From Minisyncoccota bacterium (GTDB lineage Bacteria; Patescibacteriota; Minisyncoccia; Phycocordibacterales; UBA12079): a stretch of DNA of 58,602 nt. Within the stretch, counting starts at the first letter, position 1, and every line of letters starts with the position of its first letter. The stretch is from NCBI GenBank assembly GCA_023129575.1, contig JAGMBS010000001.1, forward strand, positions 1-58,602. The letters run 5' to 3'. Position numbers and translations under genes: made by a program. The notes beneath the pieces were generated by a model. The model had not been told where the DNA came from, searched no databases, and worked only from the letters and a program-made list of their open reading frames with translations. Below are positions 3,971 to 45,568 of the stretch, in pieces.

Positions 3971-5785
3971 TTATATTTTCATATTATAAACCTTTGAAAA
4001 ATAAGTTCCTTTTTGTTCCAAGAGCTTATCGGGTTTTCCTGACTCAATAATCTGACCATTTTCTATAACAAACAATTTATCTACATTTCGCACAGTAGAT
4101 AATCTATGAGCTATTGTTAAAATAGTTATTTTTTTATCTTTTTCTTCAAAAACTTTTTGAATAATTTTTTCAGATTCACTATCTAAAGCACTAGTAGCTT
4201 CATCTAGTAAAATAATTTGTGGTTTTTTAGCTAATGCTCGAGCTACCACAATTCTTTGTTTTTGCCCTCCAGAAAGCATCAATCCTCTTTCTCCTACTAC
4301 AGTATTTAATCCTTCTGGAAGTTCTTTTATAAAATTATAAATATAAGCTGATTTTGCTGCTTCAATTATATCTTCTTCACTTATTTTTTTATTTCTAAAT
4401 TTTATATTCTCTCTGATAGTATCATTTAATAAAAATATATCTTGTGGAACATAAGCTACATTTTTTCTCCAATCTTTTATTGAAATTTCTTTTATGTTTT
4501 TATTATCAAGAAGAATTTCTCCTTCCGTTGGATTAAAAAATCGCAATAACAAATCAAATAATGTAGATTTTCCTCCACCAGAAGGTCCAATAAAACCAAC
4601 CATCTCCCCTTTTTTTATTTCTAAATTTATTTTTTTAATAGCTTTTTTCCCACTTTCATATTCAAATGAAACATTTTTTATTTTAAGAGAATCTTTAAAC
4701 GAAAAATTATCTTCTCCATTTTCCATTTTCTTTTCTTCAAACTGAGTCGCCATTTCTTGATATTTTAAAACCTCTCTTACATAAGGAATAGACCCACTAA
4801 GTGAATGGAAGCTACTTAAAATATTTTGAATGAAAGAAAAGATTTGTCTAATCAAATAGACAACAGCAATTAACGCCCCGAGATTATATGCTGTCTGATA
4901 ATAAGCAAAAGCAACAACACAAGAAATAAAAATAACTCCTACTGGTTCTGTTATTATTCCAGAAACTCTTTGTGTTAAAAATGTTTTAATCTGCAAAAAA
5001 CGAAACTTTCTAAAAAGTTCCCCCCCAATTGACCCTACTTCTCCTTCTACCCCACTAGCTTTAACTGTCTTAATCCCACTAATATGTTCATTAATATGTT
5101 GCGCCACTTTTTTATTCAAAGATGCTATTTGCTTTGAATACTTTTTAGTTAACCCAAATAATGGTTTAAGAACTAAAATTAGAATCAAACCCAAAGAAAT
5201 AGTCATAAGGGTTATCGTTTGAGAAATATTTAAAGCAACAATAATATATACCAATAAATTTATTCCGACTATTAATAAACTAGCTAAAAGATCTATTACT
5301 CCTGTGCTAACAGCAACATCAGTCCGAATAACAGTTTCTAAATATCCTATTTTTTGTTTCATTAGGTATGACCAATCAGCCCGAAGAGATTTTTTAAAAA
5401 CTTTATCCATCATATCTTGCTGATATCTTGTTTTTATATGAATTCTTATATAATCAGAAAGATAAAGGACTCCGGCTTTTATAATAAATAAAATTGAAAT
5501 TAAAATTAAAACAGAAACCAAAGAAAAAGGAATACCTGCAAATAAAAAAGAATCCTTAATAAACCGCGAAATGACATCTGTTCCTGCTGAGGCTTCTCCT
5601 CCTTTTATAAAAAAAGAAAAAACAGGAATTAAAGCATTAATACCTAAAGCACTAGCAAAACTACTTAATATTCCAAGAAAAAAAAGAACGACCATATATT
5701 TTCTATATCCATCAAAAAGTGTCCAACCTATGTTAAGAATCTCTTTAAATTGATTAACTCTTAATTTTATATTAATATTAAACAT
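3971..5785 (-). CDS. Fused TMD-NBD ABC exporter (MsbA/PglK-like lipid-linked glycan or lipid flippase)
   Basis: 604 aa. N-terminal 6-TM region, Walker A GPSGGGKST, signature LSGGQKQR, Walker B ILLDEATSALD, H-loop TIAHRLST. Confidence 0.9.
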   Translation of the reverse strand: MFNINIKLRVNQFKEILNIGWTLFDGYRKYMVVLFFLGILSSFASALGINALIPVFSFFIKGGEASAGTDVISRFIKDSFLFAGIPFSLVSVLILISILFIIKAGVLYLSDYIRIHIKTRYQQDMMDKVFKKSLRADWSYLMKQKIGYLETVIRTDVAVSTGVIDLLASLLIVGINLLVYIIVALNISQTITLMTISLGLILILVLKPLFGLTKKYSKQIASLNKKVAQHINEHISGIKTVKASGVEGEVGSIGGELFRKFRFLQIKTFLTQRVSGIITEPVGVIFISCVVAFAYYQTAYNLGALIAVVYLIRQIFSFIQNILSSFHSLSGSIPYVREVLKYQEMATQFEEKKMENGEDNFSFKDSLKIKNVSFEYESGKKAIKKINLEIKKGEMVGFIGPSGGGKSTLFDLLLRFFNPTEGEILLDNKNIKEISIKDWRKNVAYVPQDIFLLNDTIRENIKFRNKKISEEDIIEAAKSAYIYNFIKELPEGLNTVVGERGLMLSGGQKQRIVVARALAKKPQIILLDEATSALDSESEKIIQKVFEEKDKKITILTIAHRLSTVRNVDKLFVIENGQIIESGKPDKLLEQKGTYFSKVYNMKI

Positions 5786-5843: not shown

Positions 5844-6329
5844 ATGGAAATAAAAAATTTTATTTTAGATATTGATGGGGTTTTTACAACTGGTCAATTT
5901 TTATATACAGCTAATGGGAAATTTGCAAAAGTCTTTGGGGCTCATGACAATGATGGAATAAAACTTATACGGAAATATTTAAACATTCATACAATTACAG
6001 CTGACAAGAGAGGTTTTGAAATCACTAAAAAAAGAATACATAACGATATGAAACTTAAATTTGACATAATCCCCGAGAAAGAAAGACTTTCGTGGCTTAA
6101 AGAAAATTTTGACTTATCAAAATCTGTGTACATGGGAGACGGAATTTATGATGCTGAAATATTTAAACATGTAGCTTATAGTATAGCCCCTAATAGCGCC
6201 TTTTATAAAGCCAAAGAAGAAGCAAACTTTGTAACCAGATCTAATGCGGGAGAGGGAGCTGTAGCAGAAGCATGTCTACATATTATAGATAAATTTTTCG
6301 AATTACCTGATAAAATTAAAAAAAACTAA
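5844..6329 (+). CDS. HAD-IIIA phosphatase, KdsC-like (sugar-phosphate phosphatase)
   Basis: 161 aa. ILDIDGVFTTG (DxDGV nucleophile motif), DNDGIK and YMGDGIYDAEIF motifs, as in the KDO-8-P phosphatase family. Confidence 0.75.
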   Translation: MEIKNFILDIDGVFTTGQFLYTANGKFAKVFGAHDNDGIKLIRKYLNIHTITADKRGFEITKKRIHNDMKLKFDIIPEKERLSWLKENFDLSKSVYMGDGIYDAEIFKHVAYSIAPNSAFYKAKEEANFVTRSNAGEGAVAEACLHIIDKFFELPDKIKKN

Positions 6330-6338
6330 CAAAAAAAT

Positions 6339-6893
6339 ATGTTTAAAAATACTTCAAAAAATATACTCGCTGAAATTGATCAAGTTTTATCAAAAACAAA
6401 AGAAGAGAAAGTTTCTCTTTTAATAGAAGAATTGTTAAAAGCTAAAGCAATAATAACCCTTGGCGCTGGAAGAGTAGGAATGGTAGCGAGAGCATTCGCA
6501 ATGAGATTAGGGCATCTTGGACTAAAAGCTTTTATGGTAGGAGATTCAACTGTTCCATCTATTGGAAAAGGAGATTTATTGCTTGTATGCTCTGGCTCAG
6601 GTGAAACACAAACTATCTTTGATCTTACCAAAATCGCGAAAAAAAACAGGGCAGTTATTGTTTTAATAACAGGAAATAAAAACTCAAGAATAGGAAAATT
6701 AGCTGATGTTACCGTAGAAATAAAAGCTCCTTCCAAAACCAAAAAAATTGCCGGATTTAATTCAATACAGCCAATGACTACCTTAAATGAACAATGTTTA
6801 TCAATATTTTTTGACAGTATTGTATTGCAACTTATGCAAGAAATGGATGAAACACACGAAACTATGTGGGCGAGACATTCAAATTTGGAATAA
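6339..6893 (+). CDS. SIS-domain sugar-phosphate isomerase, 6-phospho-3-hexuloisomerase (PHI/HxlB)-like
   Basis: 184 aa. GAGRVGMVARAFAMRLGHLG...LLLVCSGSGETQT matches the PHI-type single SIS domain. Confidence 0.75.
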   Translation: MFKNTSKNILAEIDQVLSKTKEEKVSLLIEELLKAKAIITLGAGRVGMVARAFAMRLGHLGLKAFMVGDSTVPSIGKGDLLLVCSGSGETQTIFDLTKIAKKNRAVIVLITGNKNSRIGKLADVTVEIKAPSKTKKIAGFNSIQPMTTLNEQCLSIFFDSIVLQLMQEMDETHETMWARHSNLE

Positions 6894-6920
6894 AATTTAT
6901 CAGAAATAAAATATTAAAAT

Positions 6921-7613
6921 ATGAATAAAAAAAACAAATCATATAAATTAGCGGCCTCTCTCGTGTGCGCCAATATTTTGAATTTAGAATCAGAAATAAA
7001 AAAACTTGAAAAAGGAAACATTGACTACATCCATTTTGATGTAATGGATGGAAATTTTGTGCCGCGCCTCGGACTTCACCCCGAAATTTTAAGAGCCGTA
7101 AAAACCCTAACAAAAATTCCTGTTGATGTGCATCTAATGATAGAAAATCCTGAGAAATTTATACCAGATTTTGTTGAAGCGGGGGGAGATATAATCGTTG
7201 TTCATGCAGAAACTACCAAGCATTTGCATAATGCCATAAAAATGATACGAGACAGGGGCGCCAAGGCGGGAGTTGCTCTTAACATCGCAACTCCCTTAAC
7301 TGTACTTGATTATCTTTTAAATGATATAGATCTTGTTATGTTAATGGCTATAAATCCCGGGATTCTTGGACACAAACTTATTCCCAAAACTATGGATAAA
7401 ATTAAAGAACTGAAAGAAAAACTTATTGACTATCCTGATATAATGATAGAAATTGATGGCGGTGTAAATCCTGAAAGCGCGCCGGAAATGATTAAAAATG
7501 GCGCTAACTTATTGGTTTGCGGCACTTCAATGATATTTAAGCCGGAGGTCAGTTTAGAAAAGAAAATACAAGAAGTAAGAAATAATATTGACGCAAAAAT
7601 TTACGCCGCATAA
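6921..7613 (+). CDS. rpe: Ribulose-phosphate 3-epimerase
   Basis: 230 aa. SLVCAN...IHFDVMDGNFVP...VHLM...IEIDGGV are classic Rpe TIM-barrel motifs. Confidence 0.9.
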   Translation: MNKKNKSYKLAASLVCANILNLESEIKKLEKGNIDYIHFDVMDGNFVPRLGLHPEILRAVKTLTKIPVDVHLMIENPEKFIPDFVEAGGDIIVVHAETTKHLHNAIKMIRDRGAKAGVALNIATPLTVLDYLLNDIDLVMLMAINPGILGHKLIPKTMDKIKELKEKLIDYPDIMIEIDGGVNPESAPEMIKNGANLLVCGTSMIFKPEVSLEKKIQEVRNNIDAKIYAA

Positions 7614-7622
7614 CATATTTAT

Positions 7623-9197
7623 ATGAAATACAAAGTATTAATAACAACATCAGGCATAGGACAACGTCTCGGTGAAATTACAAAATACACAAACAAAGCG
7701 CTTGTTCGTGTAGGTAAAAAGCCCTCTTTAGCATATATTATAGAATCATACCCTATTGATACATCCTTTATTATTACAATAGGATATTTTGCCAATCATA
7801 TAAAAGAATTTATTTCTCTGGCTTATCCTGACAGGGATATAAAATTTGTTGAAATTGATAATTATAATGGGAAAGGTTCCAGTTTGGGATATTCAATGCT
7901 ACAAGCAAAAAAACTTTTACAATGTCCTTTTATTTACCATGCTTCAGACACTATCGTTACTGAAAAAATACCAGAAGCAAAAGAAAACTGGATAGGGGTT
8001 TTTAAAGGGAAAGATGCTTCACAATACGCTTCTTGGAAAAAAATAAATGGGAAAACCCTTATCTTTAATGATAAAGGGGCTCTTGACTTTGATTATATTC
8101 ACATCGGACTTGTTGGGATAAATGATTATAAAAAATATTGGGAAACTTTAGAAAAGTTATATAAAAAAAATCTTTCTAACAATACATTAAACGATTGCCA
8201 AGTTATTGTCTCTATGTTATCTGATGGAGATAAGTTTAATTTAGTTTCTTTTAAACAATGGATAGACACTGGAAATGTAGCGGCTCTGCAACATGCCAGA
8301 GAACAGATTGCCGATAAATTTAATAATTTAGACAAATTAGAAGAATCAATTTTTTTATTCAACGACTTTGTAATAAAATTTTTTCATGATAAAAAAATAA
8401 TTCAAGACAGAGTTAAAAGAGGAAAATTTCTTAAAGGATTAGTTCCTGATATTGAAGGCGCGACGGAAAATTTTTACAGATATAAATATACAAAAGGAGA
8501 TTTATACGCGAATGTTGCCACACCTTCAAATTTTAATGATTTTTTAATTTGGACAAATAAAAACCTCTGGACTAAAGTTAATGGTATTAATCCAAAATTA
8601 TTTAAGAGAAAGTGCCATGAATTTTATTTTGACAAAACAAAAAAAAGAATCCAACAATTTTTAGAATCTAACAAAATAAAAGACAGGGAGAATATAATAA
8701 ATGGAGAGAAAACGCCTTCAATAGAAAAAATATTGCAAAAAGTGGATTTTGAATGGTTGGCAGATGCCGAACCATATAGATTTCACGGGGATTTTATATT
8801 AGATAATATCTTAAAAACCAAAAATGGATATTGTCTTATTGATTGGAGACATAATTTTGGCGGCTTGCTGGAAGCAGGTGATATTTATTATGATTTATCA
8901 AAACTAAATCATAATTTAACCGTCAATCACGATATAATACATAAAAATCTTTTTTCAATTAAGATAGAAAAAGATGGAAAAATAAATTGTGATATTTTAA
9001 GGAAAAATAATCTCGTTGAATGCCAGAAACTACTTTTTGATTTTCTTAAAAAAGAGGGATACAATACAAAAAAAGTTAATGTATTGACAGGGCTAATTTG
9101 GCTTAATATGTCTCCTTTACACCATTACCCCTTCAATTTATTTTTATATTATTTCGGAAAACTTCATTTATGGCGAGCAATAGGAGAAAACAAATAA
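7623..9197 (+). CDS. Bifunctional sugar-1-phosphate nucleotidyltransferase / APH-fold (choline/anomeric-sugar kinase-like) kinase fusion
   Basis: 524 aa. N-terminal NTP-transferase motif LITTSGIGQRLG...KALVRV. The C-terminal protein-kinase-like fold has the Brenner motif HGDFILDNIL and LIDWRHNFGG. Confidence 0.75.
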   Translation: MKYKVLITTSGIGQRLGEITKYTNKALVRVGKKPSLAYIIESYPIDTSFIITIGYFANHIKEFISLAYPDRDIKFVEIDNYNGKGSSLGYSMLQAKKLLQCPFIYHASDTIVTEKIPEAKENWIGVFKGKDASQYASWKKINGKTLIFNDKGALDFDYIHIGLVGINDYKKYWETLEKLYKKNLSNNTLNDCQVIVSMLSDGDKFNLVSFKQWIDTGNVAALQHAREQIADKFNNLDKLEESIFLFNDFVIKFFHDKKIIQDRVKRGKFLKGLVPDIEGATENFYRYKYTKGDLYANVATPSNFNDFLIWTNKNLWTKVNGINPKLFKRKCHEFYFDKTKKRIQQFLESNKIKDRENIINGEKTPSIEKILQKVDFEWLADAEPYRFHGDFILDNILKTKNGYCLIDWRHNFGGLLEAGDIYYDLSKLNHNLTVNHDIIHKNLFSIKIEKDGKINCDILRKNNLVECQKLLFDFLKKEGYNTKKVNVLTGLIWLNMSPLHHYPFNLFLYYFGKLHLWRAIGENK

Positions 9198-9198: not shown

Positions 9199-10338
9199 AT
9201 GAAACATTTTACAAATTATATAGAGAGAAATAAAAGTGTAATTACCGGAAAGGAAAATCTCGAGCATCTTTACACTTTTAAAGATTTCCCAATATTTTTT
9301 GGGTGCGTAAATAATCCTCAAGAGCAAGATCTTCTGGCAGATATGGAGTGGGCAATTGATTCTGAAACCGGCGTAATACAACTTACTAAATTAATTCCGC
9401 TTGAAATTTTATATAGAGAGCAACATGTAGACGCTTTTGGAAAAATATGGGAGCAGTATTATAACGACTTCGCGAAATATATTATTTCAAGAAAACAGCC
9501 GAAAATTTTAGAGATAGGTGGTGGCAACGGAAAGTTGGCATTAACAGTCACTAAGACCGCCCCATCCGTTTTTTGGACAATAGTTGAGCCAAATCCACTT
9601 TTCCAAGGAAATAACAGAATTAAAGTTATAAATAATTTTTTTGATAAGAATTTTAAATCTGATAATAATTTTGACGCGGTAATTTTTTCTCAAGTAATGG
9701 AACACGCCTATGACCCCCGCGAATTTTTGGAAAATATCAGCGGCTTTTTAAAACCAGAAGGACATTTAATTTTTGCCTACCCAAACCTGAAATTATGGTT
9801 GAAAAATAAATTTACCAATGCCTTGAATTTTGAACATACTATGTTTTTAACAGATTATTTTGTTGATTACTTATTAGCCAAAAATGGCTTTGTTATTTTA
9901 AATAAAACAACCTATAAAGATCATAGTTTCTTTTATGATGTAAAATTTATCGGGGAAAAACAACCATTTACTTTAGAAAATAAGTATTCTGAGTATAAAA
10001 AACTCTTTATGAATTTTATAAGTTATCATAAAAATATGGTTGAGAAAATAAATAAGAAAATAAATGAGTCGGATGCGCCAATATATCTTTTTGGCGCTCA
10101 TATTTTTTCAACATTCCTTATTGTCTTTGGACTCCAATCTGCTGAGATATCGGCTATACTGGATAATAGCAAATTGAAACAAGGCCGGAGATTGTATGGA
10201 ACCAGTTTTATCGTGGATTCTCCAGAAATTTTAAGGGGCAAAGGAGCAGTAAATGTAATATTAAAAGCAGGAATTTACGACGGCGAAATTAAAAAAGATA
10301 TACTTGAAAACATTAATCCTGATGTTACATTTTGGTAA
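9199..10338 (+). CDS. SAM-dependent methyltransferase with C-methyltransferase-type C-terminal domain (NDP-sugar C-methyltransferase-like)
   Basis: 379 aa. SAM motif ILEIGGGNGKLA. The C-terminal segment IYLFGAHIFSTFL...ILDNSKLKQGRRLYGTSFIVDSPEIL resembles the TylC3-type C-terminal domain. Confidence 0.65.
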   Translation: MKHFTNYIERNKSVITGKENLEHLYTFKDFPIFFGCVNNPQEQDLLADMEWAIDSETGVIQLTKLIPLEILYREQHVDAFGKIWEQYYNDFAKYIISRKQPKILEIGGGNGKLALTVTKTAPSVFWTIVEPNPLFQGNNRIKVINNFFDKNFKSDNNFDAVIFSQVMEHAYDPREFLENISGFLKPEGHLIFAYPNLKLWLKNKFTNALNFEHTMFLTDYFVDYLLAKNGFVILNKTTYKDHSFFYDVKFIGEKQPFTLENKYSEYKKLFMNFISYHKNMVEKINKKINESDAPIYLFGAHIFSTFLIVFGLQSAEISAILDNSKLKQGRRLYGTSFIVDSPEILRGKGAVNVILKAGIYDGEIKKDILENINPDVTFW

Positions 10339-10345
10339 AAATAAA

Positions 10346-11191
10346 ATGACTACTTTAACCATATTTGCAAATTTTTTTATTGACACAGAAGAACGCTTCC
10401 TGAGAATGCAGGACTCTTTTACATCGTTTAAGTCCATTAAGTCTGACAATTGGGTAATCAACATACGTGGTAAATATCGTTTAGAAGCAATGTCTTTTTT
10501 AAAAAATAATTTAGGTGAAAAACTAATTGTATATGAACTTAATAGCCCACAGGGTTGGTTTTATGATACCAAGCAAATGCTTTCAAGTATCAATAACAAT
10601 TACATCCTTTTTTGGATAGAAGATCACATCAATCTTGCTAATACTACGTTATTAGATAAAATTGTTTTAGAAATGGATAAAAATTGCTTAGACGTTATGA
10701 GATACTCATGGTGGTGTCACGGAATACGTTGGAAGAGATATCAAAATATTAAATTAACCCATGGAAAATATATTGATTACTTTGAACAAAACGAGTTGAA
10801 CAACAAAACCATCCAGAAAAATGGTCTTTCACACCTAATAAGCTGTGTAATGGTTTTCAAAAAATCATTATTTCACAAAATTATATTAACTAGTGATCAA
10901 GATATTGAGAATTGGCCCAAAGAAACTCCTTTTAATTTTGAAAAAAAACCTTTTGATATAAAATGGCTTCCAGTAAAGGTGGCCTTACCCCGTCAGGAAC
11001 TTTTTGCTTCGATAGATGATGATGCAGGATTTAAAAATTATTGCCTTCAATCAAGAAATTTATATCCAACAAGAGAAGGGCGGAAATCATATGCTGTCAA
11101 AAACTATGAAAAAAAGTTAAACTTTATACAACAACTATTAAAGATCTTTATTAAAATAAAAACAAAAATTATAGAAAAAACGGCAAAATAA
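10346..11191 (+). CDS. Hypothetical protein (possible GT-A-like fold)
   Basis: The ORF is open from 10304. ATG at 10346 follows the upstream stop more sensibly. No clear family. FWIEDH could be an acidic nucleotide-sugar motif, which is weak evidence. Confidence 0.5.
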   Translation: MTTLTIFANFFIDTEERFLRMQDSFTSFKSIKSDNWVINIRGKYRLEAMSFLKNNLGEKLIVYELNSPQGWFYDTKQMLSSINNNYILFWIEDHINLANTTLLDKIVLEMDKNCLDVMRYSWWCHGIRWKRYQNIKLTHGKYIDYFEQNELNNKTIQKNGLSHLISCVMVFKKSLFHKIILTSDQDIENWPKETPFNFEKKPFDIKWLPVKVALPRQELFASIDDDAGFKNYCLQSRNLYPTREGRKSYAVKNYEKKLNFIQQLLKIFIKIKTKIIEKTAK

Positions 11192-21555: not shown

Positions 21556-22524
21556 ATGAAATATCACTTTTGTACATTATTTGATAAAAATTACTTAATA
21601 AAAGGACTCGCTCTGTATAATTCTCTTTGTGAACACATTGATTCTTTTTGTTTATGGATTCTATGTCTTGATGATGAAACTTATTCCATTCTTAATACAA
21701 TGAAATTGCAAAATATGAAATTAATTAAGTTATCCGATTTTGAAACAAAAGAATTGAAAGAAATTAGAAAAACTCGTAGTTTGGCAGAATATTATTTTAC
21801 TTTGGGACCATCATTTATTTCTTCAATCCTTACAAAACCAGAGATTTCTTTAATAACTTATCTTGATGCTGATTTATTCTTTTTTTCTTCTCCAAAACCA
21901 ATTTTTCAGAAATTTGAAAACCATTCTGTCCTCATTACCCCACACAGGATGTCTCCAAAGCAAAAAGATTATGAGGAAAAGGTAGGTAAATATAATGTAG
22001 GATTGCTTGTGTTTAGAGATGACAAAGACGGTCAGGACTGTTTAAATTGGTGGAAAAATGAATGTCTCAAATGGTGTTACCACCGAGCAGAATCTGGTAG
22101 ATATGCAGACCAAAAATACCTTGATTATTTCCCTACAAAGTTTAATAATGTGTATATTCTCAATCAAAAAGGGTCTAATTTAGCTCCGTGGAATATAGAA
22201 CAATACAAAAGCAAATTACACTTAAAAGATAAAAATGTGTATATTGGTAATGACAAACTTATATTTTTCCATTTTGCAAAATTTTCCCTTTATTTTCCAA
22301 AATCTCATATTCGCCCTGATACTCCAAGCCGTTATTATTTAAAGACAGGCATTCAAAAACAATACATTTATTGTCCCTATGCCCAAGCACTTTATAAAGC
22401 CCTTTCTCAGATTAAGATAAAAAATCCATCTTTTTCTGAAGGTATTATTTCCAGACCAGCAAATTATTCTGACATCATGAGTTCAATTAAAAACTTCGTT
22501 AAATCCAAAATAAAAAATGATTAA
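21556..22524 (+). CDS. GT-A fold glycosyltransferase (GT8-like nucleotide-diphospho-sugar transferase)
   Basis: 322 aa. YHFCTLFDKNY...ITYLDADLFFF (DxD) and ADQKYLD motifs. Confidence 0.6.
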   Translation: MKYHFCTLFDKNYLIKGLALYNSLCEHIDSFCLWILCLDDETYSILNTMKLQNMKLIKLSDFETKELKEIRKTRSLAEYYFTLGPSFISSILTKPEISLITYLDADLFFFSSPKPIFQKFENHSVLITPHRMSPKQKDYEEKVGKYNVGLLVFRDDKDGQDCLNWWKNECLKWCYHRAESGRYADQKYLDYFPTKFNNVYILNQKGSNLAPWNIEQYKSKLHLKDKNVYIGNDKLIFFHFAKFSLYFPKSHIRPDTPSRYYLKTGIQKQYIYCPYAQALYKALSQIKIKNPSFSEGIISRPANYSDIMSSIKNFVKSKIKND

Positions 22525-22939
22525 AAAAATAAAAGTTAAAAATTCTGGAATTATAAAATTACAATCTTATGATGATTTTCCTGATGGTAATTTAACTATT
22601 GCTGAATCAAGAAAAAATATTCCTTTTGACATTAAAAGAGTATATTTTATAAATAACTTATTCAATAACAAATCAATTCGTGGGAAACATGCTCATAAAA
22701 AATTAAAGCAGATTATTTTTTGTATTAACGGTCATTTTACTTTGAATTTAGATGACGGAAAAAACAAACAAAAAATTCTAATGAACAATCCATCTTATGG
22801 AATTTACCTTGGTTCAAAACTATGGCATACAATGAATAAATTTTCATCTAATTGTGTAATCTTAGTTTTAGCTGAAGATTATTATACCGAAAAAGATTAT
22901 CTTAGAAATTATAATGATTTTCTAAAGTATATAAAATAA
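22517..22939 (+). CDS. fdtA: WxcM/FdtA-like cupin, NDP-4-keto-6-deoxyhexose 3,4-ketoisomerase
   Basis: 140 aa. RVYFINNL...RGKHAHKKLKQIIFCINGHFTL...GIYLGSKLWH, with the FdtA/QdtA His pair. Confidence 0.75.
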   Translation: MIKKIKVKNSGIIKLQSYDDFPDGNLTIAESRKNIPFDIKRVYFINNLFNNKSIRGKHAHKKLKQIIFCINGHFTLNLDDGKNKQKILMNNPSYGIYLGSKLWHTMNKFSSNCVILVLAEDYYTEKDYLRNYNDFLKYIK

Positions 22940-22941
22940 TT

Positions 22942-24033
22942 ATGCAAATTCCATTTTTTGATTATAAACAACAATTAAAACCCTTAAAACCTGAAATAAA
23001 CAAGGTTATTAATAGTGTGTTAGATTCGGGACAATTGATTTTAGGAAACGAAGTAAGAAAGTTTGAAAACAATTTTGCTAAATTTATAAACACTAAATAT
23101 GGAATAGGAGTAAATTCTGGGACTGATGCAATTAAAATAGCCATGGTAGCATTAGATATTAAAAACGGTGATGAGGTAATAACTGTTGCAAATACAGCAA
23201 TCCCTACCATAAGTGCGATAAGAGAAATTGGGGCTATGCCTAAATTTGTTGATATCAAAAATGATTTTACCATAGATGAAAATAAGATAGAGAAAGTTAT
23301 AACAAAAAAGACAAGGGTTATTTTATCTGTTCATCTATATGGTCAACCTTGCAATATGTCAGTCATAATTAAAATAGCCAAAAAACATAATCTCAAAATT
23401 TTAGAAGATTGTGCTCAATCTCACGGAGCTCAATTAAAAAACAAGAAAGTTGGAAGTTTTGGTGATATTAGTTGTTTTAGCTTTTATCCAACTAAAAATT
23501 TAGGTGCTTATGGCGATGCTGGTATAATTTTAACTTCTAACAAGAAACTATTTGATAAGTGTAAGATGCTACGAACTTATGGAATGAAAAATACTTATTA
23601 TTCTCATATCGAAGGATATAATAGCAGAATGGACGAAATACAGGCAGGAATTTTAAATATAAAACTGAAGCATTTGAAAAAGTGGAATAACAATCGTCGC
23701 CAAATTGCTGAATATTATTTAAATAATATAAAGAATTCTAAAATTATATTGCCGAAAATAAAAGATATAAATAATCATATATTTCATCTCTTTGTTGTTA
23801 GAACCAATCAAAGAAAAAAATTTACTAAATACTTACTTAAACACAAAATAAGATATGGAATTCATTACCAATTCCCTATTCATTTACAAACTGCTTATAA
23901 ATTTTTAAATTATAAAAAAGGCAACCTACCAATTACCGAGAAATTTTCTAAACAAATTGTATCATTACCAATATTTCCAGAATTAACAAAAACAGAAATT
24001 CAGTATATAGTTAATACAATAAATAATTTTTAA
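22942..24033 (+). CDS. fdtB: DegT/DnrJ/EryC1-family PLP-dependent NDP-ketosugar aminotransferase (FdtB/QdtB-like)
   Basis: 363 aa. GNEVRKFENNFA...FSFYPTKNLGAYGDAG (PLP Lys) ...YNSRMDEIQAGIL. Confidence 0.9.
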   Translation: MQIPFFDYKQQLKPLKPEINKVINSVLDSGQLILGNEVRKFENNFAKFINTKYGIGVNSGTDAIKIAMVALDIKNGDEVITVANTAIPTISAIREIGAMPKFVDIKNDFTIDENKIEKVITKKTRVILSVHLYGQPCNMSVIIKIAKKHNLKILEDCAQSHGAQLKNKKVGSFGDISCFSFYPTKNLGAYGDAGIILTSNKKLFDKCKMLRTYGMKNTYYSHIEGYNSRMDEIQAGILNIKLKHLKKWNNNRRQIAEYYLNNIKNSKIILPKIKDINNHIFHLFVVRTNQRKKFTKYLLKHKIRYGIHYQFPIHLQTAYKFLNYKKGNLPITEKFSKQIVSLPIFPELTKTEIQYIVNTINNF

Positions 24034-31301: not shown

Positions 31302-32442
31302 ATATTTTATATTCTTTTATTATTTCTTTAATTTCAAAAATTTGAGATCTTCGCTGTGATTTTTGGCCATATTTTTTAAGTAATTCCTTGTTTTGATATA
31401 ACTTCAAAATTACTCCTGCAATATTCTCTACATCTTGTTTAGCTGCCAAAACTCCATATTCGGCATATTCTATCTTACCTTTTTTTAATTGTTTGTTAAA
31501 GTCAGAATTTGGAGCCAATAATTCTCTTGAACCAGAGCCACAGTCAGTGGCTATTATAGGTAATCCTAAGATTCCAGCTTCAATTAAAACATTTGAAAAT
31601 CCTTCCCAAAGAGACGTAGAAACTAATACATCTGAATTAGCCATATAAAAATATGGATTATCTGTAAAACCCTCTAAATAAACGTCTTTTATATTTAAAT
31701 CTAAAACTAATTTTTCTAATTCCTTTTGCTGTCCCCCTTCTCCCAAAATAATCAACTGGGCATCTGTTTTCTGTTTTACTAAAGCAAAAGTTCTAATTAG
31801 AGTTTTAAAATCTTTTTGTTTTTCTAAACGACCGATTGCTAAAATCGTAAACTTTTTAGGATACAGCCACTCCCCCTTTTTTGATTTTTCCTTAATTTCT
31901 TCTATAAATTTTGGATTGTAGATAACTTTAATTTTATCTTTTGATATTTTACTTGTTTTTATTAAATCGTCAGCAACATTTTTAGAATTAGCAATAATTA
32001 CATCTGCTTTTGGATATAAAACTTTAATTAAAAACGGGATTAATTTATCTCTCTTATTTTTATAATTCTTAAATAAGTCCGAAAAAGTCATTCCAACACG
32101 AACAAAAACTTTTGTTTTTGTTCTAGAAAATATTTTAGCCAAAATTAAAATTAAATTGGCATGTTCAGAAGTTCCTAAAACAAAAACTGGCTTTTCTTTT
32201 CTTAAATATTTTATGATTGGAAGTATAGAAAACAAAATTCTTGAAACATTTAAATCTATAATGTTTATTTGCAAATCAATTCTTTTTTCTAAAACTCCTT
32301 TTCTACTAAATAACAACAAATCTACATCAAAACCATCTTCAGCAAATCCTTTTGCTAAATCTAAAATCACATTTTCCCCTCCCCCTTCATATAGACCTAT
32401 TAGGAAAAATCCTATTCTTTTTTTGTTAGTTTTTTTGTTCAC
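31282..32442 (-). CDS. GT4-family glycosyltransferase
   Basis: 386 aa. GGGENVILDLAKGF...IGRLEKQKDF...SLWEGFSNVLIEAGILGLPIIATDCGSGSRELL. Confidence 0.85.
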   Translation of the reverse strand: MNKKTNKKRIGFFLIGLYEGGGENVILDLAKGFAEDGFDVDLLLFSRKGVLEKRIDLQINIIDLNVSRILFSILPIIKYLRKEKPVFVLGTSEHANLILILAKIFSRTKTKVFVRVGMTFSDLFKNYKNKRDKLIPFLIKVLYPKADVIIANSKNVADDLIKTSKISKDKIKVIYNPKFIEEIKEKSKKGEWLYPKKFTILAIGRLEKQKDFKTLIRTFALVKQKTDAQLIILGEGGQQKELEKLVLDLNIKDVYLEGFTDNPYFYMANSDVLVSTSLWEGFSNVLIEAGILGLPIIATDCGSGSRELLAPNSDFNKQLKKGKIEYAEYGVLAAKQDVENIAGVILKLYQNKELLKKYGQKSQRRSQIFEIKEIIKEYKIYEFSNY

Positions 32443-33473
32443 AACAAAATTTTTCTAAGTTTATCTTTAATAATTTCTAACGGAACATCACCAAGACATC
32501 TCAAAACATCACCACGACAACTTTCTAAATGTTCTCTGCCTTCATAGATATTATGTTGGTAATTATTGATTTTATATAAAATAGTTGCATTTGGATTATA
32601 GTAAGGCAACCAATTAGGTGTTCCATTTTGTGCAATTATAAGTGATTTTTGCCCTAAAAAGGAAGCGATATGAGCCGTTCCTGTATCCACTCCTATAAAT
32701 AGTTCGGAGTCATCTATAACTGTACACAATTCTGACATTTTAGAATTAGTCATAATAATCGCTTTATCTTTAAAATTATTTAAAACTTTTTCATCAGTTT
32801 TTCCACCAGTCAAAACAATCTTGATTTTAGGCAAAAGATTTTTAATAAAATCTATAATTTCATTAATCTCTTTTTCTCTAAAACTTCGTCCTTTTGTTGC
32901 CGCTATGGGGTTAAAAACAATAAATTTTTCTTTCTCTAAACCCAACTCTTTTAGAATATCTTCATCTTTTGTATATTCTAATTTTGGAATTTCTTTTTTG
33001 ACTTCAAAGTCCAATTCGTTTAGCACAGTTTTCAAAAAATCTGGATAAATAATTTTTGTATTGTATTTTAATAATTTTGTATAAATAAATTTATTAATTT
33101 TTTGCCCGTCATCAAACCCCACTAATTCACTTCTACCCAATAAAGAGATTTTTTTAGCTATTATCTTTATATACCAAGAAAGTTTCCCTGGAGTTGGTGC
33201 TGTGATAATTAAATTCTTAGAAAAAGCAAATTTTGATAATTTTAATATTCCCAATAACCCTTTTACACTTTTTCGATTAGCTAAAATTATATTTATATAT
33301 GAATATTTTGCTAAAAATTGTAAAAGTAATTTTTCATTTTTAGGGATAACCACATTTAATTTTATTGAATTATCATTCAGATAAATATTTTCCAAAAAGA
33401 AAATAGTCATCAAAAAATCTCCAATGGAACCATTTTGAAAATAAATTAAATTTTTGTATTTTTTATTAAACAT
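32439..33473 (-). CDS. GT9-family glycosyltransferase (heptosyltransferase-like)
   Basis: 344 aa. GSIGDFLMT near the N-terminus and FIGVDTGTAHIASFLG near the C-terminus, as in ADP-heptose:LPS heptosyltransferases. Confidence 0.7.
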   Translation of the reverse strand: MFNKKYKNLIYFQNGSIGDFLMTIFFLENIYLNDNSIKLNVVIPKNEKLLLQFLAKYSYINIILANRKSVKGLLGILKLSKFAFSKNLIITAPTPGKLSWYIKIIAKKISLLGRSELVGFDDGQKINKFIYTKLLKYNTKIIYPDFLKTVLNELDFEVKKEIPKLEYTKDEDILKELGLEKEKFIVFNPIAATKGRSFREKEINEIIDFIKNLLPKIKIVLTGGKTDEKVLNNFKDKAIIMTNSKMSELCTVIDDSELFIGVDTGTAHIASFLGQKSLIIAQNGTPNWLPYYNPNATILYKINNYQHNIYEGREHLESCRGDVLRCLGDVPLEIIKDKLRKILL

Positions 33474-40973: not shown

Positions 40974-42152
40974 TTATTTAATCATTTTCTCAAAAATATT
41001 CTGCATCTTTTTTGCGATTAAATTCCAATCGTATTTTTGGGCAATTAATTGGGAGGCGTTTTGGGTGAGGGTGTTTGCGAGATTTGGATTGTTTAGGAGT
41101 AATTGGATTTTTTCGGCGATTGATTTTGGATTTTGAACTTCGCAAAAAAGTCCCGTCTCGCCGTCTTTCAAAAAATCAGGGATACCGCCAACCGGCGTTC
41201 CGATTACCGGCGTTCCCGCCGCCATCGCTTCCAAAAAAACATTTCCCAAACCTTCCGAGAGTGAAGGTCTAACAAATACATCCGCCAGAGCATAATAACT
41301 TGGCAATTCGCTGTGGTCAATATGTCCAAGAAAAATTATTTTGTTTTGGAGATTTAATTCTTTCGCCAAATTTTTCAATTTTTCTTCATCCTCCCCCGCG
41401 CCGGCGATTAAAATTTTAAATGGGAAATTCAGATATTGCCCCGCTTTAATCAAATCCTCAATACCATTCTTTTTAACCAATCGTGAAACCGTCAAAATCA
41501 CCTTTTCATTTTCTTTAATCTTTAATTCTTCTCTTAATTTTTGACTTTTGACTTTTGACTTTTGACTTTTGAACTTGTTTATATCTACTCCATTAGGAAT
41601 CACTTCAATCGGACAAGTCGCTCCCATCTTTTTCGCCCAGTCCGCCAAATAAGAACTAATGCATTGAATTCGGTCGGCTCGCCTGAAGATGTTTCTGAAT
41701 TGTTTTTTTATAAAACGAGTTCTTTTTTCAATATGTTCCGGGCTGTCACCTTCTTGAAGCGTGAGCAGAAAGCGGGGGGCGGCCTTTGCCGAAGGCAAAG
41801 GCCGCTTTCTTTCCTTTGAAATAAATCTGGACGCCGCCAAAGCGCCATAACTCGCCATTATCGCCCAAGCGATATCATAATTGTTTTGCCTCTGCAATTT
41901 TCCGGCCATCCGATGGCCGTGGAATGCTAAAAGCAATTTATCTATTTTTGGATGTCCAATCCCAATTCTAAAAACCGTGATATTTCCAATTTTTTCCTGT
42001 TTAGGTAATTTCTTATCCATCCGAGCCGTTATCATATGAAATTCCATATCAGATATTCGGTCCGTAATTTCCTTAACCGCCACTTCCGCCCCGCCGACAA
42101 ACGGGAAATAAGCCGTTGAAAATATAAGAATTTTTTTAGATATTTGGGTCAT
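40974..42152 (-). CDS. GT4-family glycosyltransferase containing a (AAAAGTC)4 tandem repeat and a GC-rich palindrome
   Basis: The ORF is open to 42173. ATG at 42152 (MTQISKKILIFSTAYFPFVGGAEVAV) is the likely start. VSRLVKKNGIEDL, PSLSEGLGNVFLEAMAAGTPVIGTPVGGIPD. Confidence 0.85.
   Translation of the reverse strand: MTQISKKILIFSTAYFPFVGGAEVAVKEITDRISDMEFHMITARMDKKLPKQEKIGNITVFRIGIGHPKIDKLLLAFHGHRMAGKLQRQNNYDIAWAIMASYGALAASRFISKERKRPLPSAKAAPRFLLTLQEGDSPEHIEKRTRFIKKQFRNIFRRADRIQCISSYLADWAKKMGATCPIEVIPNGVDINKFKSQKSKVKSQKLREELKIKENEKVILTVSRLVKKNGIEDLIKAGQYLNFPFKILIAGAGEDEEKLKNLAKELNLQNKIIFLGHIDHSELPSYYALADVFVRPSLSEGLGNVFLEAMAAGTPVIGTPVGGIPDFLKDGETGLFCEVQNPKSIAEKIQLLLNNPNLANTLTQNASQLIAQKYDWNLIAKKMQNIFEKMIK
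41543..41570. repeat. Tandem heptanucleotide repeat (GACTTTT)x4 on the plus strand, (AAAAGTC)x4 in the coding sense
   Basis: Four perfect 7-nt units followed by a degenerate fifth (GAACTTG). It encodes KFKSQKSKVKSQK within the GT4 gene. Confidence 0.9.
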
Positions 42153-43689
42153 TTTTATCCAATTTAACGACAAAAACCATACCGGCTATGGCTATTATGG
42201 TAATACCCAGCAAAGAAAAAGCCCATTTATTAAAAGGAGATTTTTTAGCAGTTTGTTTAGCGATTGGATTTGACGATGTCGGACCCGCTAATGTTAAATT
42301 CGGCGTCAAAGCCGCGCCGGCAATTGCTGCCATTTGATTTGAATTTTCCGCTACAATCGGCTGTTTTTGAACCGCATTCGCATCAAATTGAGGCGGATTT
42401 TGGGTGAATGCGGTTTTTACAACAAAATTGGCGGTTTTCTTAGGAATATCCGGACTAATTTTTTTTGTTTCCGCATATTCAAAAGCCAACCTCCCGTTTG
42501 GGTAAAGTAATTGAATTTGACTATTTTCTCGCGGAAAAAGATTGCTTATTCTGGCTGAAAATTTAATCCGGCTTTTCGGCAAAAGAATGGTATTTTTCGG
42601 AATTGTCCAATAATTATTGTCCGCTCTTAAGCGCCACCAAGACAGATTAAGTTCATAAGCAGAAGGATTATGAAGTTCAATAAAATTATTGTCAAAATTG
42701 GTTCCCAGTTCCGAAATAATGATGTCGGACGGAATAACTTTTATTTTCAAACGGGTGGCAGAGGAGCATTCGCCTGAAATAACTTCCAAAACCGCCATAT
42801 AATCACTTGGATATTGGTAATTGTGCAGAACTTTTTGCCCCGCGGCTTTTGAGCCGTCGCCAAATGTCCATTGGTATTTTGCGTTTTGCAAAGGTCTGTT
42901 TTGAATACCAAAGGCCTGGGCTTCAAAAAGAAAATCCGCGCCCGCGATTGGCGTGTCAGTCGGCGGAATAATCCGGGCGGAAATTCGCGGTTCAATATAT
43001 TCCGGAACGGGTGGAGTTGGATTATCATTTTCAGTTTGCGGAGTTTCGGGAAGGCTTGGCGGGTCAATTTCTTCTAAAAATTTTTCAATGACAACAATAC
43101 CATCAATCGGCAAATTGCAAGTGGTTGCTTCACCGGGGGTTGGAGCGCAAGCGCCCCAGCTTCCGTCACTTATTTTTTGAAATGAATTGCCAATATCTTT
43201 ATTCTCCGCAAAAGGAAAATATGACGCCTGAATAACATTTTTTGAGTCAGAGTCTTTAATAATGAGAGTCTCTCCACTCTCTTTGTTGATTAGAGAACCA
43301 AATTTAGAATTAAGAATTGTACCAGAAAAATTAGGCCAATCTGTTAAAAATGTACTCTCATCTCCATCTTTAATATCCGCCACAATTAAATACTCTTTAG
43401 GTTCCAACGCAAAACTACCCTGAATTACTGAAAAAGGGTGTCCACCGTCCTTATCAACTAATTTCCACCCTGTCAGATTTTCAACTTTCTCCAAATCCGA
43501 ATTATAAATCTCAATCCATTCCCTGCCCCCATCAGCTTTTGAGCCAAGGGCATCTTCGCCTGGGTCATACATTATCTCGGTAATTTCAATTTGGGCAAAA
43601 AGAAAAAGCGGCGCGCAAAAAAGAAAGAAAAGGGCGATTGCCGCAGGCAATCGCCCTTTGTATTTATTTATTTTCCGGTCTTTTAACAT
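42136..43689 (-). CDS. Secreted/membrane-anchored lamin-tail-domain protein (LTD-PKD-LTD, C-terminal TM)
   Basis: 517 aa. Signal-like N-terminus, LTD motifs ITEIMYDP...REWIEIYN and NFIELHNPS...WWRL, PKD-like YQWTFGDGS, C-terminal hydrophobic WAFSLLGITIIAIAGMVFVV. Confidence 0.8.
   Translation of the reverse strand: MLKDRKINKYKGRLPAAIALFFLFCAPLFLFAQIEITEIMYDPGEDALGSKADGGREWIEIYNSDLEKVENLTGWKLVDKDGGHPFSVIQGSFALEPKEYLIVADIKDGDESTFLTDWPNFSGTILNSKFGSLINKESGETLIIKDSDSKNVIQASYFPFAENKDIGNSFQKISDGSWGACAPTPGEATTCNLPIDGIVVIEKFLEEIDPPSLPETPQTENDNPTPPVPEYIEPRISARIIPPTDTPIAGADFLFEAQAFGIQNRPLQNAKYQWTFGDGSKAAGQKVLHNYQYPSDYMAVLEVISGECSSATRLKIKVIPSDIIISELGTNFDNNFIELHNPSAYELNLSWWRLRADNNYWTIPKNTILLPKSRIKFSARISNLFPRENSQIQLLYPNGRLAFEYAETKKISPDIPKKTANFVVKTAFTQNPPQFDANAVQKQPIVAENSNQMAAIAGAALTPNLTLAGPTSSNPIAKQTAKKSPFNKWAFSLLGITIIAIAGMVFVVKLDKNDPNI
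43629..43659 (-). terminator. Perfect 14-bp hairpin plus U-rich tail immediately after the upstream stop codon, inside the LTD ORF
   Basis: AAAGGGCGATTGCC-gca-GGCAATCGCCCTTT. On the minus strand it is followed by TTCTTTCTTTTTT. It starts 5 nt after the stop (43664) of the ATPase gene. Confidence 0.6.
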
Positions 43690-45316
43690 AAAGCATTTTT
43701 TCTAAAACATTTTTTGGAATTTCTTTTTTCTCGCCGCCTGAATTTATCGGACGCGCCGGATGTTCCGTTCGCCAAGTATTTATTTTAGCGGTTGGAACAT
43801 TTAATACCTTTTTCATTTCATCTCCGCTGTTCCCTTGCGTATTTTGAATTGCTTTTGACAGGGCCTCCCTCAATTGGGTTCTGTCGGAACTTATTTTTTT
43901 TTCTGTTTTAATATTGCCAATAGTTTTGAAGTTTTTCTTTCCCTGCAAACTGTTCAGACGAATGCGATTATTATCTTGACGCGGTTTTTTCAGCGCGGGT
44001 TTCTCGTTTTGAACGGGCTTTTTATCAAGCGGTTGATGCCAATCCATTATTTCCTTTTCCACTTCTCTTCTGGGCCGCGTGAATTGCTTGCGCGACATTT
44101 CTATTATTTCCGGCTTATACGAAATTAACGGTTTGGCGATCGGCAGCAAGGTCCGGGCGGAAAACGGCGTTGAACTGATTCCGTCTATCATTAATTTTAA
44201 ATAAACTTGCGCAAAACCCAGATTGACAATATCGTCCATAGTAAATTGGGGCGAAAATTCTTTTTCAAAAATTTCAGCGTCATACGAACCTAAACGAAAA
44301 ATTATCATCGTCCCGATGTTGCCGAAAATGGCGGCTTTTACTTCCTCCTCCATTTGTTCCACATATTGGTGGGCGATTGTCAGATTGAGCTTGTATTTTC
44401 TCGCTTCCGACAAAATATCGGCAAAAGATTTATTGGCGAAAGATTGAAATTCGTCCACAAAAAAATAGAAATTGGGTAATTTATTCAGTTCCTCCTGAGA
44501 AGCATCGGCGCGCGACATCGCCGCCAAATAAATTTTGGTAATCAGCATACTCCCCAATAAATTGGCGCTGGCCTCTCCCACTTGTCCTTTTGACAAATTG
44601 ATTATCAAAATCTTTTTCTGGTCCATTATTTCTCTAATGTCAAAAGAAGATTTTGTTTGCCCGATAATATTTCGCACAATCGGGTTGGACACAAATTGCC
44701 CAATTTTGTTTTGGATAGCCGCGCCGGCTTCCTGCATATAACGGTCGCCGTATTTGGCAAATTCATCCGTCCAAAAGGCCTTGACGGACGGATCGCTCAC
44801 ATTATCCACAACTTTCTGGCGATAATTTTTATCGGACAACATCCGATTAACGCCCAATAAAGTCGCGTCCGGATATTCCAGAAGAGCTAACAAAATATTA
44901 TTCAAAATGTATTGCATCCGGGCCGACCAAGCATCCACCCAAATTTTCTCAAAAGCGCTCATCAAACCGCTCACGACAAGATGTCTTTTATCGGGTTCCA
45001 CATTTTCCAAAACATTGAATGAAATCGGATTTTCCAAGTCAAACGGCGCAAAATAAATAACATCTTCTATCCGCTCTTCGGGAACATAATCCAAAAGCAA
45101 ATCGGCCGTTTTGCCGTGCGGATCCATAAAAGCCATCCCGTTGCCGTTTTTAATGTCCTGCGCCGCCATATTTTCAAGCATTGTGGATTTCCCCATTCCC
45201 GTTTTTCCGATAGTATAAATATGGTTTGTCCGGTCTGACGCTTTAATGCCGAAAGGCATCCTTTTATTGCGGCGATCAACTTCGGCAAAATATGTAATTG
45301 GATTATCGCTATCCAT
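43664..45316 (-). CDS. VirD4/TraD-like (T4SS coupling-protein-type, HerA/FtsK superfamily) P-loop ATPase, soluble, with basic C-terminal tail
   Basis: 550 aa. Walker A GKTGMGKST, Walker B FYFFVDEFQSF, TIAHQY. No N-terminal TM segment. The C-terminal 130 aa are Lys/Arg/Gln-rich and low in complexity. Confidence 0.75.
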   Translation of the reverse strand: MDSDNPITYFAEVDRRNKRMPFGIKASDRTNHIYTIGKTGMGKSTMLENMAAQDIKNGNGMAFMDPHGKTADLLLDYVPEERIEDVIYFAPFDLENPISFNVLENVEPDKRHLVVSGLMSAFEKIWVDAWSARMQYILNNILLALLEYPDATLLGVNRMLSDKNYRQKVVDNVSDPSVKAFWTDEFAKYGDRYMQEAGAAIQNKIGQFVSNPIVRNIIGQTKSSFDIREIMDQKKILIINLSKGQVGEASANLLGSMLITKIYLAAMSRADASQEELNKLPNFYFFVDEFQSFANKSFADILSEARKYKLNLTIAHQYVEQMEEEVKAAIFGNIGTMIIFRLGSYDAEIFEKEFSPQFTMDDIVNLGFAQVYLKLMIDGISSTPFSARTLLPIAKPLISYKPEIIEMSRKQFTRPRREVEKEIMDWHQPLDKKPVQNEKPALKKPRQDNNRIRLNSLQGKKNFKTIGNIKTEKKISSDRTQLREALSKAIQNTQGNSGDEMKKVLNVPTAKINTWRTEHPARPINSGGEKKEIPKNVLEKMLYVKRPENK

Positions 45317-45539: not shown

Positions 45540-45568
45540 GCGGATTATAAAAACAAAAATCAGGTCTC

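Follow-up and report, generated by a model that had tools for sequence, protein, structure and literature searches.

A conserved nucleotide-sugar cassette common in Patescibacteria is a probable cellular variant of the phage AfhE/AfhF pathway

The stretch of DNA analysed here (hereafter the window) comprises 58,602 nucleotides of contig JAGMBS010000001.1 (assembly GCA_023129575.1) from a Minisyncoccota bacterium and carries, at positions 5844–9197, a four-gene cassette that we rate as a cellular variant of the recently described phage AfhE/AfhF pathway and that has no specific name in reference databases. The cassette consists of four plus-strand open reading frames (ORFs) at the head of a long plus-strand array, separated by intergenic gaps of 9, 27 and 9 nt. 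In order, these encode a KdsC-like HAD-IIIA phosphatase (5844–6329, 161 amino acids (aa)), a single-SIS-domain isomerase of the 6-phospho-3-hexuloisomerase (PHI/HxlB) family (6339–6893, 184 aa), the ribulose-phosphate 3-epimerase Rpe (6921–7613, 230 aa) and a fusion of a nucleotidyltransferase with an APH-fold kinase (7623–9197, 524 aa). All four domain assignments had been made in an initial annotation of the sequence and were upheld by family scans, Protein Data Bank (PDB) comparisons and AlphaFold models. On balance we favour the reading that the operon, together with a methyltransferase and a protein designated U295 encoded directly downstream, makes a nucleotide-activated rare sugar by an AfhE-like route, with UDP-D-arabinofuranose as the leading candidate.

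Conservation of the cassette was evaluated by a neighbourhood survey employing tblastn, ORF clustering and family hidden Markov models (HMMs). It drew on 80 loci of species-level genomes, the number of relatives found being 212. Counts were made over the 53 loci that extended at least 3 kb upstream and at least 2.5 kb downstream of the fusion. In 32 of these 53 loci the SIS and Rpe genes stood together on the same strand as the fusion and right in front of it, the SIS gene always being paired with Rpe. An orthologue of the HAD phosphatase was located within 6 kb of the fusion in 47/53 loci, mostly directly after it; in the window the HAD is the first gene of the cassette, moved from its usual place 3' of the fusion. 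Hosts included many Patescibacteria lineages, Bacteroidota, Gamma- and Alphaproteobacteria, Bdellovibrionales, Verrucomicrobia, Firmicutes (Oscillospiraceae) and DPANN archaea. Pairwise divergence of Rpe, SIS and HAD tracked that of the fusion (r of 0.76, 0.71 and 0.51, respectively; Mantel p 0.001). The four genes are a real, widely conserved operon and not a chance neighbourhood. The initial proposal of a dedicated nucleotide-sugar cassette accordingly stands as far as conservation as a unit is concerned, but it had overlooked two co-conserved genes. The first encodes a class I S-adenosylmethionine (SAM) methyltransferase with a C-methyltransferase-type C-terminal domain (9199–10338, plus strand, 379 aa; PF13489 and PF08484), an orthologue of which was observed within 6 kb of the fusion in 35/53 loci, normally next to the fusion or the HAD. 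Its presence may mean that the product is a methylated or branched sugar. The second, U295, is annotated at 10304–11191 but likely starts at the ATG at 10346 (10346–11191, plus strand, 281 aa) and was present in 17/53 loci, 7 of these 17 members having a C-terminal Cupin_2 domain. U295 had no Pfam, NCBIfam or PDB match. It corresponds to the N-terminus of a 1087-aa Geobacter protein (locus L078, 12737–16000) and is a candidate transferase for the cassette product. No description of the cellular cassette was found in the searchable literature. Precedents from Campylobacter jejuni capsules (xylulose in HS:53 and CDP-6-glucitol in HS:5) were also sought, and the literature gave no matching cassette.

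The fusion protein was investigated further by profile and fold searches. It comprises a nucleotidyltransferase domain (approximately residues 1–230) and an APH-fold kinase domain (approximately residues 235–524), for which profile scans returned a weak NTP_transferase signal N-terminally and a weak APH signal at residues 367–428. The Brenner motif HGDFILDNIL pointed out in the initial annotation is present at residues 388–397. All of 26 homologues retain its His, Asp and Asn, and a metal-binding Asp downstream of the motif is likewise invariant in homologues. AlphaFold models had mean predicted local distance difference test (pLDDT) values of 88.7 at full length and 92.5 for the kinase domain alone, the C-terminal domain having been predicted again by itself because a full-length fold search returned nucleotidyltransferases only. 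Structure prediction was needed in order to place the kinase, as a sequence-only PDB search with this domain was nearly empty (the sole match was maltokinase, E 0.5). Foldseek comparison of the predicted N-terminal domain gave LicC (1jyk), MurU (4y7t) and RmlA among the best matches. LicC was matched at E 8e-9 at the profile level, inositol-1-phosphate cytidylyltransferase was also among the best solved relatives, and MurU and RmlA scored on par with LicC in the fold search. In the PDB fold search the predicted kinase domain lay at the same distance from ethanolamine/choline kinases, APH(2''), maltokinase, glucosamine kinase and fructosamine kinase (TM 0.4–0.56, 10–16% identity), the best PDB kinases reaching E 4e-6 at a TM of at most 0.56 and mostly at root-mean-square deviations (rmsd) of 6–11 Å. 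The kinase had initially been compared to AmgK and NahK. No specific affinity of this kind was observed, as no entry named AmgK or NahK was among the top 50 PDB matches, and the maltokinase and glucosamine kinase found there scored as low as the APH and choline kinases.

More than 2000 relatives of the fusion were found, mostly in metagenome-assembled genomes of Patescibacteria, the best matches being 56–70% identical and generically named. A scan of every representative protein resulted in 616 clusters at 50% identity with E≤1e-30. NCBI names for isolate copies are 'phosphotransferase' or 'nucleotidyltransferase family protein', and neither NCBIfam nor Pfam has a specific name for the family. 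In a plasmid collection just unrelated Haloferax nucleotidyltransferases were matched. In seven loci (L007, L011, L037, L038, L042, L043 and L044) the full-length fusion is immediately preceded by a further, free-standing nucleotidyltransferase domain of ~240 aa. In one 724-aa metagenomic protein (P0325) a GIY-YIG-like N-terminal domain is joined to a fusion homologue, which hints at a mobile or phage origin of that copy.

Homology between the cellular fusion and the AfhE-type enzymes of phages extends over both domains. In phages, UDP-D-arabinofuranose is made for arabinosylation of 5-hydroxycytosine in DNA (PMC13326640, NAR 2026). As described in that paper, HY126 AfhE consists of an N-terminal nucleotidyltransferase and a C-terminal kinase and is both an arabinose-5-phosphate kinase and a UDP-arabinose pyrophosphorylase; it turns arabinose-5-phosphate into the 1,5-bisphosphate and later makes UDP-arabinose, while AfhF, a HAD bisphosphate phosphatase, takes off the 5-phosphate. 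Homologues of the pathway are given there as gp55, gp52:53 and gp51 of RB69 and gp83, gp82 and gp81 of DLP3, and homology of the window fusion to HY126 AfhE was tested through such RB69/DLP homologues. An HMM of 80 cellular fusions matched ORF047 of Enterococcus phage 9183 over its full length at 122.7 bits, an 'NDP-sugar synthase' of cyanophage S-SRM01 at 71 bits, gp80 of Acinetobacter phage DLP1 at 43 bits and the JS98, PWKp16 and Thanatos-2 proteins at 35–41 bits, the last four being of the Straboviridae type. Alignment of the family profile with five Straboviridae AfhE-type fusions using hhalign gave a probability of 99.6% (E 4.3e-23) over 479 columns covering both domains. The homology was clear only with family profiles, single-sequence hhalign being weak (E 4.5e-4 and 2.9e-3) and tblastn with the window fusion not reaching RB69. 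Cellular and phage fusions have in common the motifs HGDxxxxN, D(W/P)RxxFG and YDxAK and a C-terminal IW(L/I) helix. When predicted structures were compared by Foldseek, full-length viral nucleotidyltransferase-kinase fusions ranked first among viral models (E 7e-23), and the model of RB69 ORF052c (E 2e-11, TMt 0.65, rmsd 3.7 Å) was closer than any PDB kinase. The structures listed in PMC13326640 as neighbours of the phage enzyme (4y7t, 1jyk, 3ham and 6hwl) were also found as neighbours of the window fusion.

Gene order is likewise shared. The order SIS isomerase, fusion, HAD of RB69, DLP1 and S-SRM01 equals the usual cellular order of SIS, Rpe, fusion and HAD. The phage and cellular systems are thus alike in joining a nucleotidyltransferase and an APH-fold kinase in one polypeptide, in gene order and in a putative entry from pentose phosphates. 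They differ in that the cassette has a PHI-type SIS protein, a KdsC-like HAD and an added Rpe, and in that the cellular locus has the co-conserved methyltransferase and U295 as well as an alternative front end with GatZ-like and cupin proteins. The settings differ too, the phage genes lying in a DNA-modification cluster and the cassette among the glycosyltransferases and exporter of a cellular glycan locus. Nucleoside diphosphate (NDP)-D-arabinose had been listed initially as one candidate product, and it is strengthened by the finding of a fusion homologous to AfhE-type enzymes beside SIS and HAD genes. The step logic now also has a precedent, the phage pathway having been published in 2025–2026. 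A separate observation concerns Synechococcus phage S-SRM01 (L085, 2769–5181), where an arabinose-5-phosphate-isomerase-type SIS protein, a nucleotidyltransferase-kinase fusion and a small HAD adjoin genes for GDP-fucose synthesis, a fucosyltransferase, a GT2 and an FkbM methyltransferase, a glycan rather than a DNA-modification setting.

Profile HMMs were further utilized in order to place the three remaining cassette proteins. The SIS protein is a member of the PHI family, scoring 199 bits against TIGR03127 (6-phospho-3-hexuloisomerase; equivalog-domain cutoff 160). SIS proteins of two other cassette copies scored 174 and 195 bits, and Bacillus subtilis YckF (1m3s) was matched by phmmer at E 4e-35. 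Of the placements entertained initially, arabinose-5-phosphate isomerase and GmhA were not borne out by these scores. Models of the former gave 38.7 (KdsD, cutoff 505), 29.3 (kpsF, cutoff 203.7) and 20.6 bits (GutQ, cutoff 481), while the phage isomerases scored 88–112 bits on the same KpsF/GutQ/KdsD models, and GmhA models gave 20–24 bits against cutoffs of 209–276. Rpe scored 224.3 bits against TIGR01163, above the equivalog cutoff of 212.6, and 173 bits against the NCBIfam model of AlsE; in direct comparison it scored 181 bits with potato chloroplast Rpe (1rpx) and 128 bits with AlsE (3ct7). Its H-x-D, DVHLM and DGG motifs line up with those of 1rpx, so that metal-binding and catalytic motifs are retained. 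The Rpe proteins of two other cassette copies fell just under the cutoff (193 and 207 bits) with AlsE scores of 161 and 163 bits. The HAD is KdsC-like in fold and size only. It has the DxD and GDxxxD motifs (as LDIDGV and GDGIYD) and scored 69.9 bits against TIGR01670 (KdsC subfamily; cutoff 106.95) and 53.4 bits against PRK09484 (KdsC; cutoff 208), which does not make it a KdsC-type KDO-8-phosphate phosphatase.

For the favoured route to UDP-D-arabinofuranose we infer the substrates, the order of kinase and phosphatase, the nucleotide and the identity of the sugar as follows. Rpe would equilibrate xylulose-5-phosphate with ribulose-5-phosphate, and the PHI-type SIS protein would convert a ketose phosphate to an aldose phosphate, the best guess being ribulose-5-phosphate to D-arabinose-5-phosphate. 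The APH-fold kinase would then phosphorylate the anomeric hydroxyl of the furanose 5-phosphate to give a 1,5-bisphosphate, from which the KdsC-like HAD would take off the terminal (C5/C6) phosphate. The N-terminal nucleotidyltransferase would convert the resulting sugar 1-phosphate to the NDP-sugar, UDP-D-arabinofuranose in the leading case, and the methyltransferase, U295 and glycosyltransferases of the surrounding locus would use or modify it. 3-Hexulose-6-phosphate is ribulose-5-phosphate bearing a hydroxymethyl group on C1, and the PHI reaction towards fructose-6-phosphate is therefore the arabinose-5-phosphate isomerase reaction atom for atom. By this analogy it is chemically reasonable that a PHI-type enzyme acting on ribulose-5-phosphate would give the D-arabino configuration. 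A bisphosphate intermediate is probable on the basis of AfhE as reported in PMC13326640, which implies the order of the GmhA/HddA/GmhB/HddC heptose pathway, namely ketose phosphate, aldose phosphate, bisphosphate, removal of the terminal phosphate and NDP-sugar. The novelty initially claimed for the order of steps is therefore probably unfounded, as the characterised relative follows the heptose order in the account given by that source. The cassette and the heptose route differ in their enzymes: the cassette kinase has the APH fold, not that of GHMP kinases, and is fused to the nucleotidyltransferase, and the HAD is KdsC-like. The cassette is no member of the heptose route itself, with 20.8 bits for gmhA (cutoff 209), 18.5 bits for HddC (cutoff 300) and no GHMP kinase in the cassette.

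A different front end was observed in part of the survey. In 19 of the 53 loci SIS and Rpe were absent and a GatZ-like protein of 330–390 aa was found instead, accompanied in 16 of these loci by a 115-aa cupin. The two front ends never co-occurred. The GatZ-like protein belongs to the GatZ/KbaZ family (profile E 1e-7 with Escherichia coli GatZ, 2fiq) and retains the metal triad His88, Glu171 and His257, a His/Glu/His triad that a 2025 study assigned to GatZ as a fructose-6-phosphate/tagatose-6-phosphate C4 epimerase. The cupin matched PF01050, the cupin domain of type II phosphomannose isomerases, at 33 bits. An HMM search for a hidden cupin in the SIS and Rpe loci found none, barring the remote cupin relative that some U295 proteins carry. 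Metagenomic proteins join either component to the fusion at either end (GatZ-like protein or cupin, N- or C-terminal to the fusion). The fusion, HAD and methyltransferase are orthologous across both variants, and since the variants are intermixed in a neighbour-joining tree of the fusion, the front ends have been swapped repeatedly. Both front ends support a general logic in which an epimerase and an isomerase ready a sugar phosphate for the kinase/nucleotidyltransferase. Beside this, a sequence filed as 'Marine virus AG-345-E15' (MH319741.1; L089, 8640–11480) carries cupin, fusion and GatZ-like genes in that order, its fusion being 48% identical to that of the window; the contig may belong to a virus that carries the cellular cassette, or may be cellular DNA deposited under a viral name.

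These data also hold several points that weigh against D-arabinose as the product. No route to D-arabinose can run through a GatZ-type C4 epimerase, which from central ketose phosphates gives tagatose-6-phosphate or L-pentulose phosphates. Because the back-end genes are orthologous and the variants intermixed, this suggests that the variants make the same, non-arabinose product or that the back end tolerates different sugars. Further, the SIS protein passes the NCBI equivalog cutoff for PHI and is not of the KpsF/GutQ type seen in phages. The HAD is KdsC-like, whereas phage HADs are small EcbF/BcbF-type proteins matching TIGR01689, and a model of the cassette HAD does not detect them. The fusion is only ~19–25% identical to the characterised phage family, so that its substrate specificity may differ from that of AfhE, the biochemistry of which (He et al. 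2026) is cited here after PMC13326640.

Such considerations lead to a C4-epimerised hexose as an unlikely but coherent alternative. PHI would convert fructose-6-phosphate to 3-hexulose-6-phosphate, Rpe would epimerise it at C4 and PHI acting in reverse would yield tagatose-6-phosphate, the product of GatZ, followed by formation of NDP-tagatofuranose or, after action of the cupin, of NDP-talose or NDP-galactose. This was the only scheme found that gives SIS and Rpe on the one hand and the GatZ-like protein on the other the same intermediate. It fits the strict mutual exclusivity of the two front ends (32 versus 19 loci) and their intermixing in the fusion tree, the scoring of the SIS protein as a true PHI and the keto-diol-phosphate substructure that 3-hexulose-6-phosphate shares with ribulose-5-phosphate. 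It is also in line with the retained GatZ triad, with the occurrence of the GatZ-like protein and the cupin fused to the kinase/nucleotidyltransferase protein, and with the orthology of methyltransferase and HAD in both variants. D-Arabinose, D-lyxose, L-arabinose, altrose and heptoses were also considered as a common product of both front ends, and none of them converge on paper as tagatose does. Against the tagatose scheme, the cassette Rpe is nearer to Rpe than to AlsE in both of the comparisons given above, the SIS and Rpe variant is without a counterpart of the cupin, and the sole characterised homologue acts on a pentose phosphate according to PMC13326640. The scheme is kept as the main rival, not as the favoured reading, because it requires an Rpe activity without precedent. 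We know of no Rpe acting on 3-hexulose-6-phosphate, nor, to our knowledge, are tagatose or talose residues established glycan components. A broader form of the idea is more doubtful still, namely that PHI and Rpe constitute a new kind of two-enzyme C4 epimerase interchangeable with the GatZ-like enzyme, and that an undescribed tagatofuranose- or talose-type NDP-sugar occurs widely at the surface of Patescibacteria, DPANN archaea, Campylobacter concisus and others.

In the initial annotation the steps had been arranged around a free sugar, the HAD first dephosphorylating the aldose phosphate (or xylulose-5-phosphate), the kinase then acting on the free sugar at its anomeric position, in the manner of AmgK/NahK or the trypanosomatid arabinokinase, and the nucleotidyltransferase activating the product. 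This order is kept as a rival since it is the one given in Table 1 of PMC13326640 for the DLP3 and RB69 homologues, although we regard it as distinctly improbable. KdsC-type phosphatases normally take monophosphates, such as KDO-8-phosphate and KDN-9-phosphate, and APH-fold anomeric kinases do exist, maltokinase and glucosamine kinase being among the structural neighbours of the fusion. The text of PMC13326640, however, has the bisphosphate order, with AfhE as an arabinose-5-phosphate kinase acting at C1 of the already phosphorylated sugar and AfhF as the bisphosphate phosphatase that then removes the 5-phosphate, and this account runs counter to a free-sugar intermediate. In addition, an Arg beside the metal-binding Asp (DWR/DPR) is conserved in cellular and phage proteins and may bind a phosphate of the substrate.

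Activation of a non-anomeric phosphate ester, in the manner of LicC and LicA, would give a CDP-linked sugar, alditol or alcohol phosphate for phosphodiester-linked decorations and appears very unlikely. LicA and LicC are a choline kinase and a phosphocholine cytidylyltransferase and are fused as LicCA in Treponema. The match to LicC and inositol-1-phosphate cytidylyltransferase in the nucleotidyltransferase domain, the 'choline kinase' labels that some databases attach to fusion homologues and the ethanolamine/choline kinases among the structural neighbours are consistent with such a role. The kinase domain, however, has no Choline_kinase Pfam match, and DWR stands where choline kinases have DxEY, which leaves the LicA/LicC reading unsupported and agrees with the initial preference for a kinase outside the choline/ethanolamine type. 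Choline kinases were no closer than APH(2''), maltokinase or glucosamine kinase (TM 0.4–0.55), and MurU and RmlA equalled LicC. Family scans of the window covered the ORFs at 3971–40211, and no LicD- or LicB-family match was found among them. Moreover, strict linkage to sugar-phosphate isomerase/epimerase pairs and homology to AfhE favour an anomeric sugar phosphate. The cassette resembles both LicA/LicC and AmgK/MurU (the anomeric kinase and uridylyltransferase for N-acetylmuramic acid and N-acetylglucosamine) in combining an APH-fold kinase with a small LicC/MurU-like nucleotidyltransferase. It differs from both in that its kinase domain has no specific affinity to either and in that its partners are a sugar-phosphate isomerase/epimerase pair and a phosphatase.

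There remains the possibility, raised initially, that PHI and Rpe are housekeeping enzymes of the host. Both are sequence-level members of the families found in the ribulose monophosphate (RuMP) module (HxlA and HxlB) and the pentose-phosphate pathway, respectively, but their genes sit inside a nucleotide-sugar cassette and diverge in parallel with it. No match to the family of HxlA, the 3-hexulose-6-phosphate synthase (HPS/orotidine monophosphate decarboxylase family), was found among the scanned window ORFs, and the cassette survey revealed no further conserved gene family and thus no RuMP synthase partner. Chance juxtaposition of such enzymes with a glycan locus could draw on their scores as genuine family members and on the probably small genome of the patescibacterial host, in which one copy might serve both roles, but it is effectively refuted by the survey, as Rpe, SIS and HAD co-diverge with the fusion and recur together with it, the SIS and Rpe pair stands immediately upstream of the fusion across many phyla and is replaced, as a pair, by another of epimerase/isomerase type, and the scanned ORFs lack a synthase-family match.

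The favoured reading would extend a D-arabinofuranose activation route reported up to now from phages alone, the cassette being a cellular counterpart and possibly an evolutionary source. The fusion family is concentrated in Patescibacteria and DPANN archaea, the surface glycans of which are almost unknown, and the cassette is also found in the cultivable Campylobacter concisus and Marinomonas and is therefore open to testing. Replacement of PHI and Rpe by the GatZ-like protein and cupin constitutes a clean natural experiment in non-orthologous replacement. Knowing the product would help to annotate hundreds of glycan loci better and could reveal a new sugar donor.

Outside the cassette, approximately 4–34 kb of the window is a low-GC glycan-assembly island (25–29% GC, flanks 35–42%). 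Its glycosyltransferases comprise seven GT4, two GT2, a GT9-like enzyme, a GT11, a GT8-like and a TOD1/MUCI70-like protein. The GT9-like ORF, noted initially at 32439–33473, is real (PF01075). The island also encodes at least nine SAM methyltransferases (two of FkbM type), a PGA_cap protein and a polysaccharide deacetylase. Divergent from the cassette lies an MsbA/PglK/HepA-like ABC exporter (3971–5785, minus strand) of loose membership, scoring 366 bits with the NCBIfam model of HepA and 327 bits with that of MsbA, both under cutoff. Several loci had homologues of it no more than 6 kb from the fusion, among them L070 (5491–7206) and L079 (11655–13319), and the hosts of such loci included Campylobacter concisus, Marinomonas and Wolinella. 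This recurrence suggests that the exporter flips or exports the glycan bearing the sugar. At 22517–24033 a gene for an FdtA-type 3,4-ketoisomerase adjoins one for a DegT aminotransferase, a signature of the 3-amino-3,6-dideoxyhexose pathway, and no RmlA- or RmlB-family match was found among the scanned ORFs. Just beyond the island, at 42136–46771, a TraD-like coupling-protein fragment (43664–45316) is accompanied by two large ORFs that had no match in NCBIfam, the sole library run on flank ORFs, and this region may be the remnant of a conjugative element.

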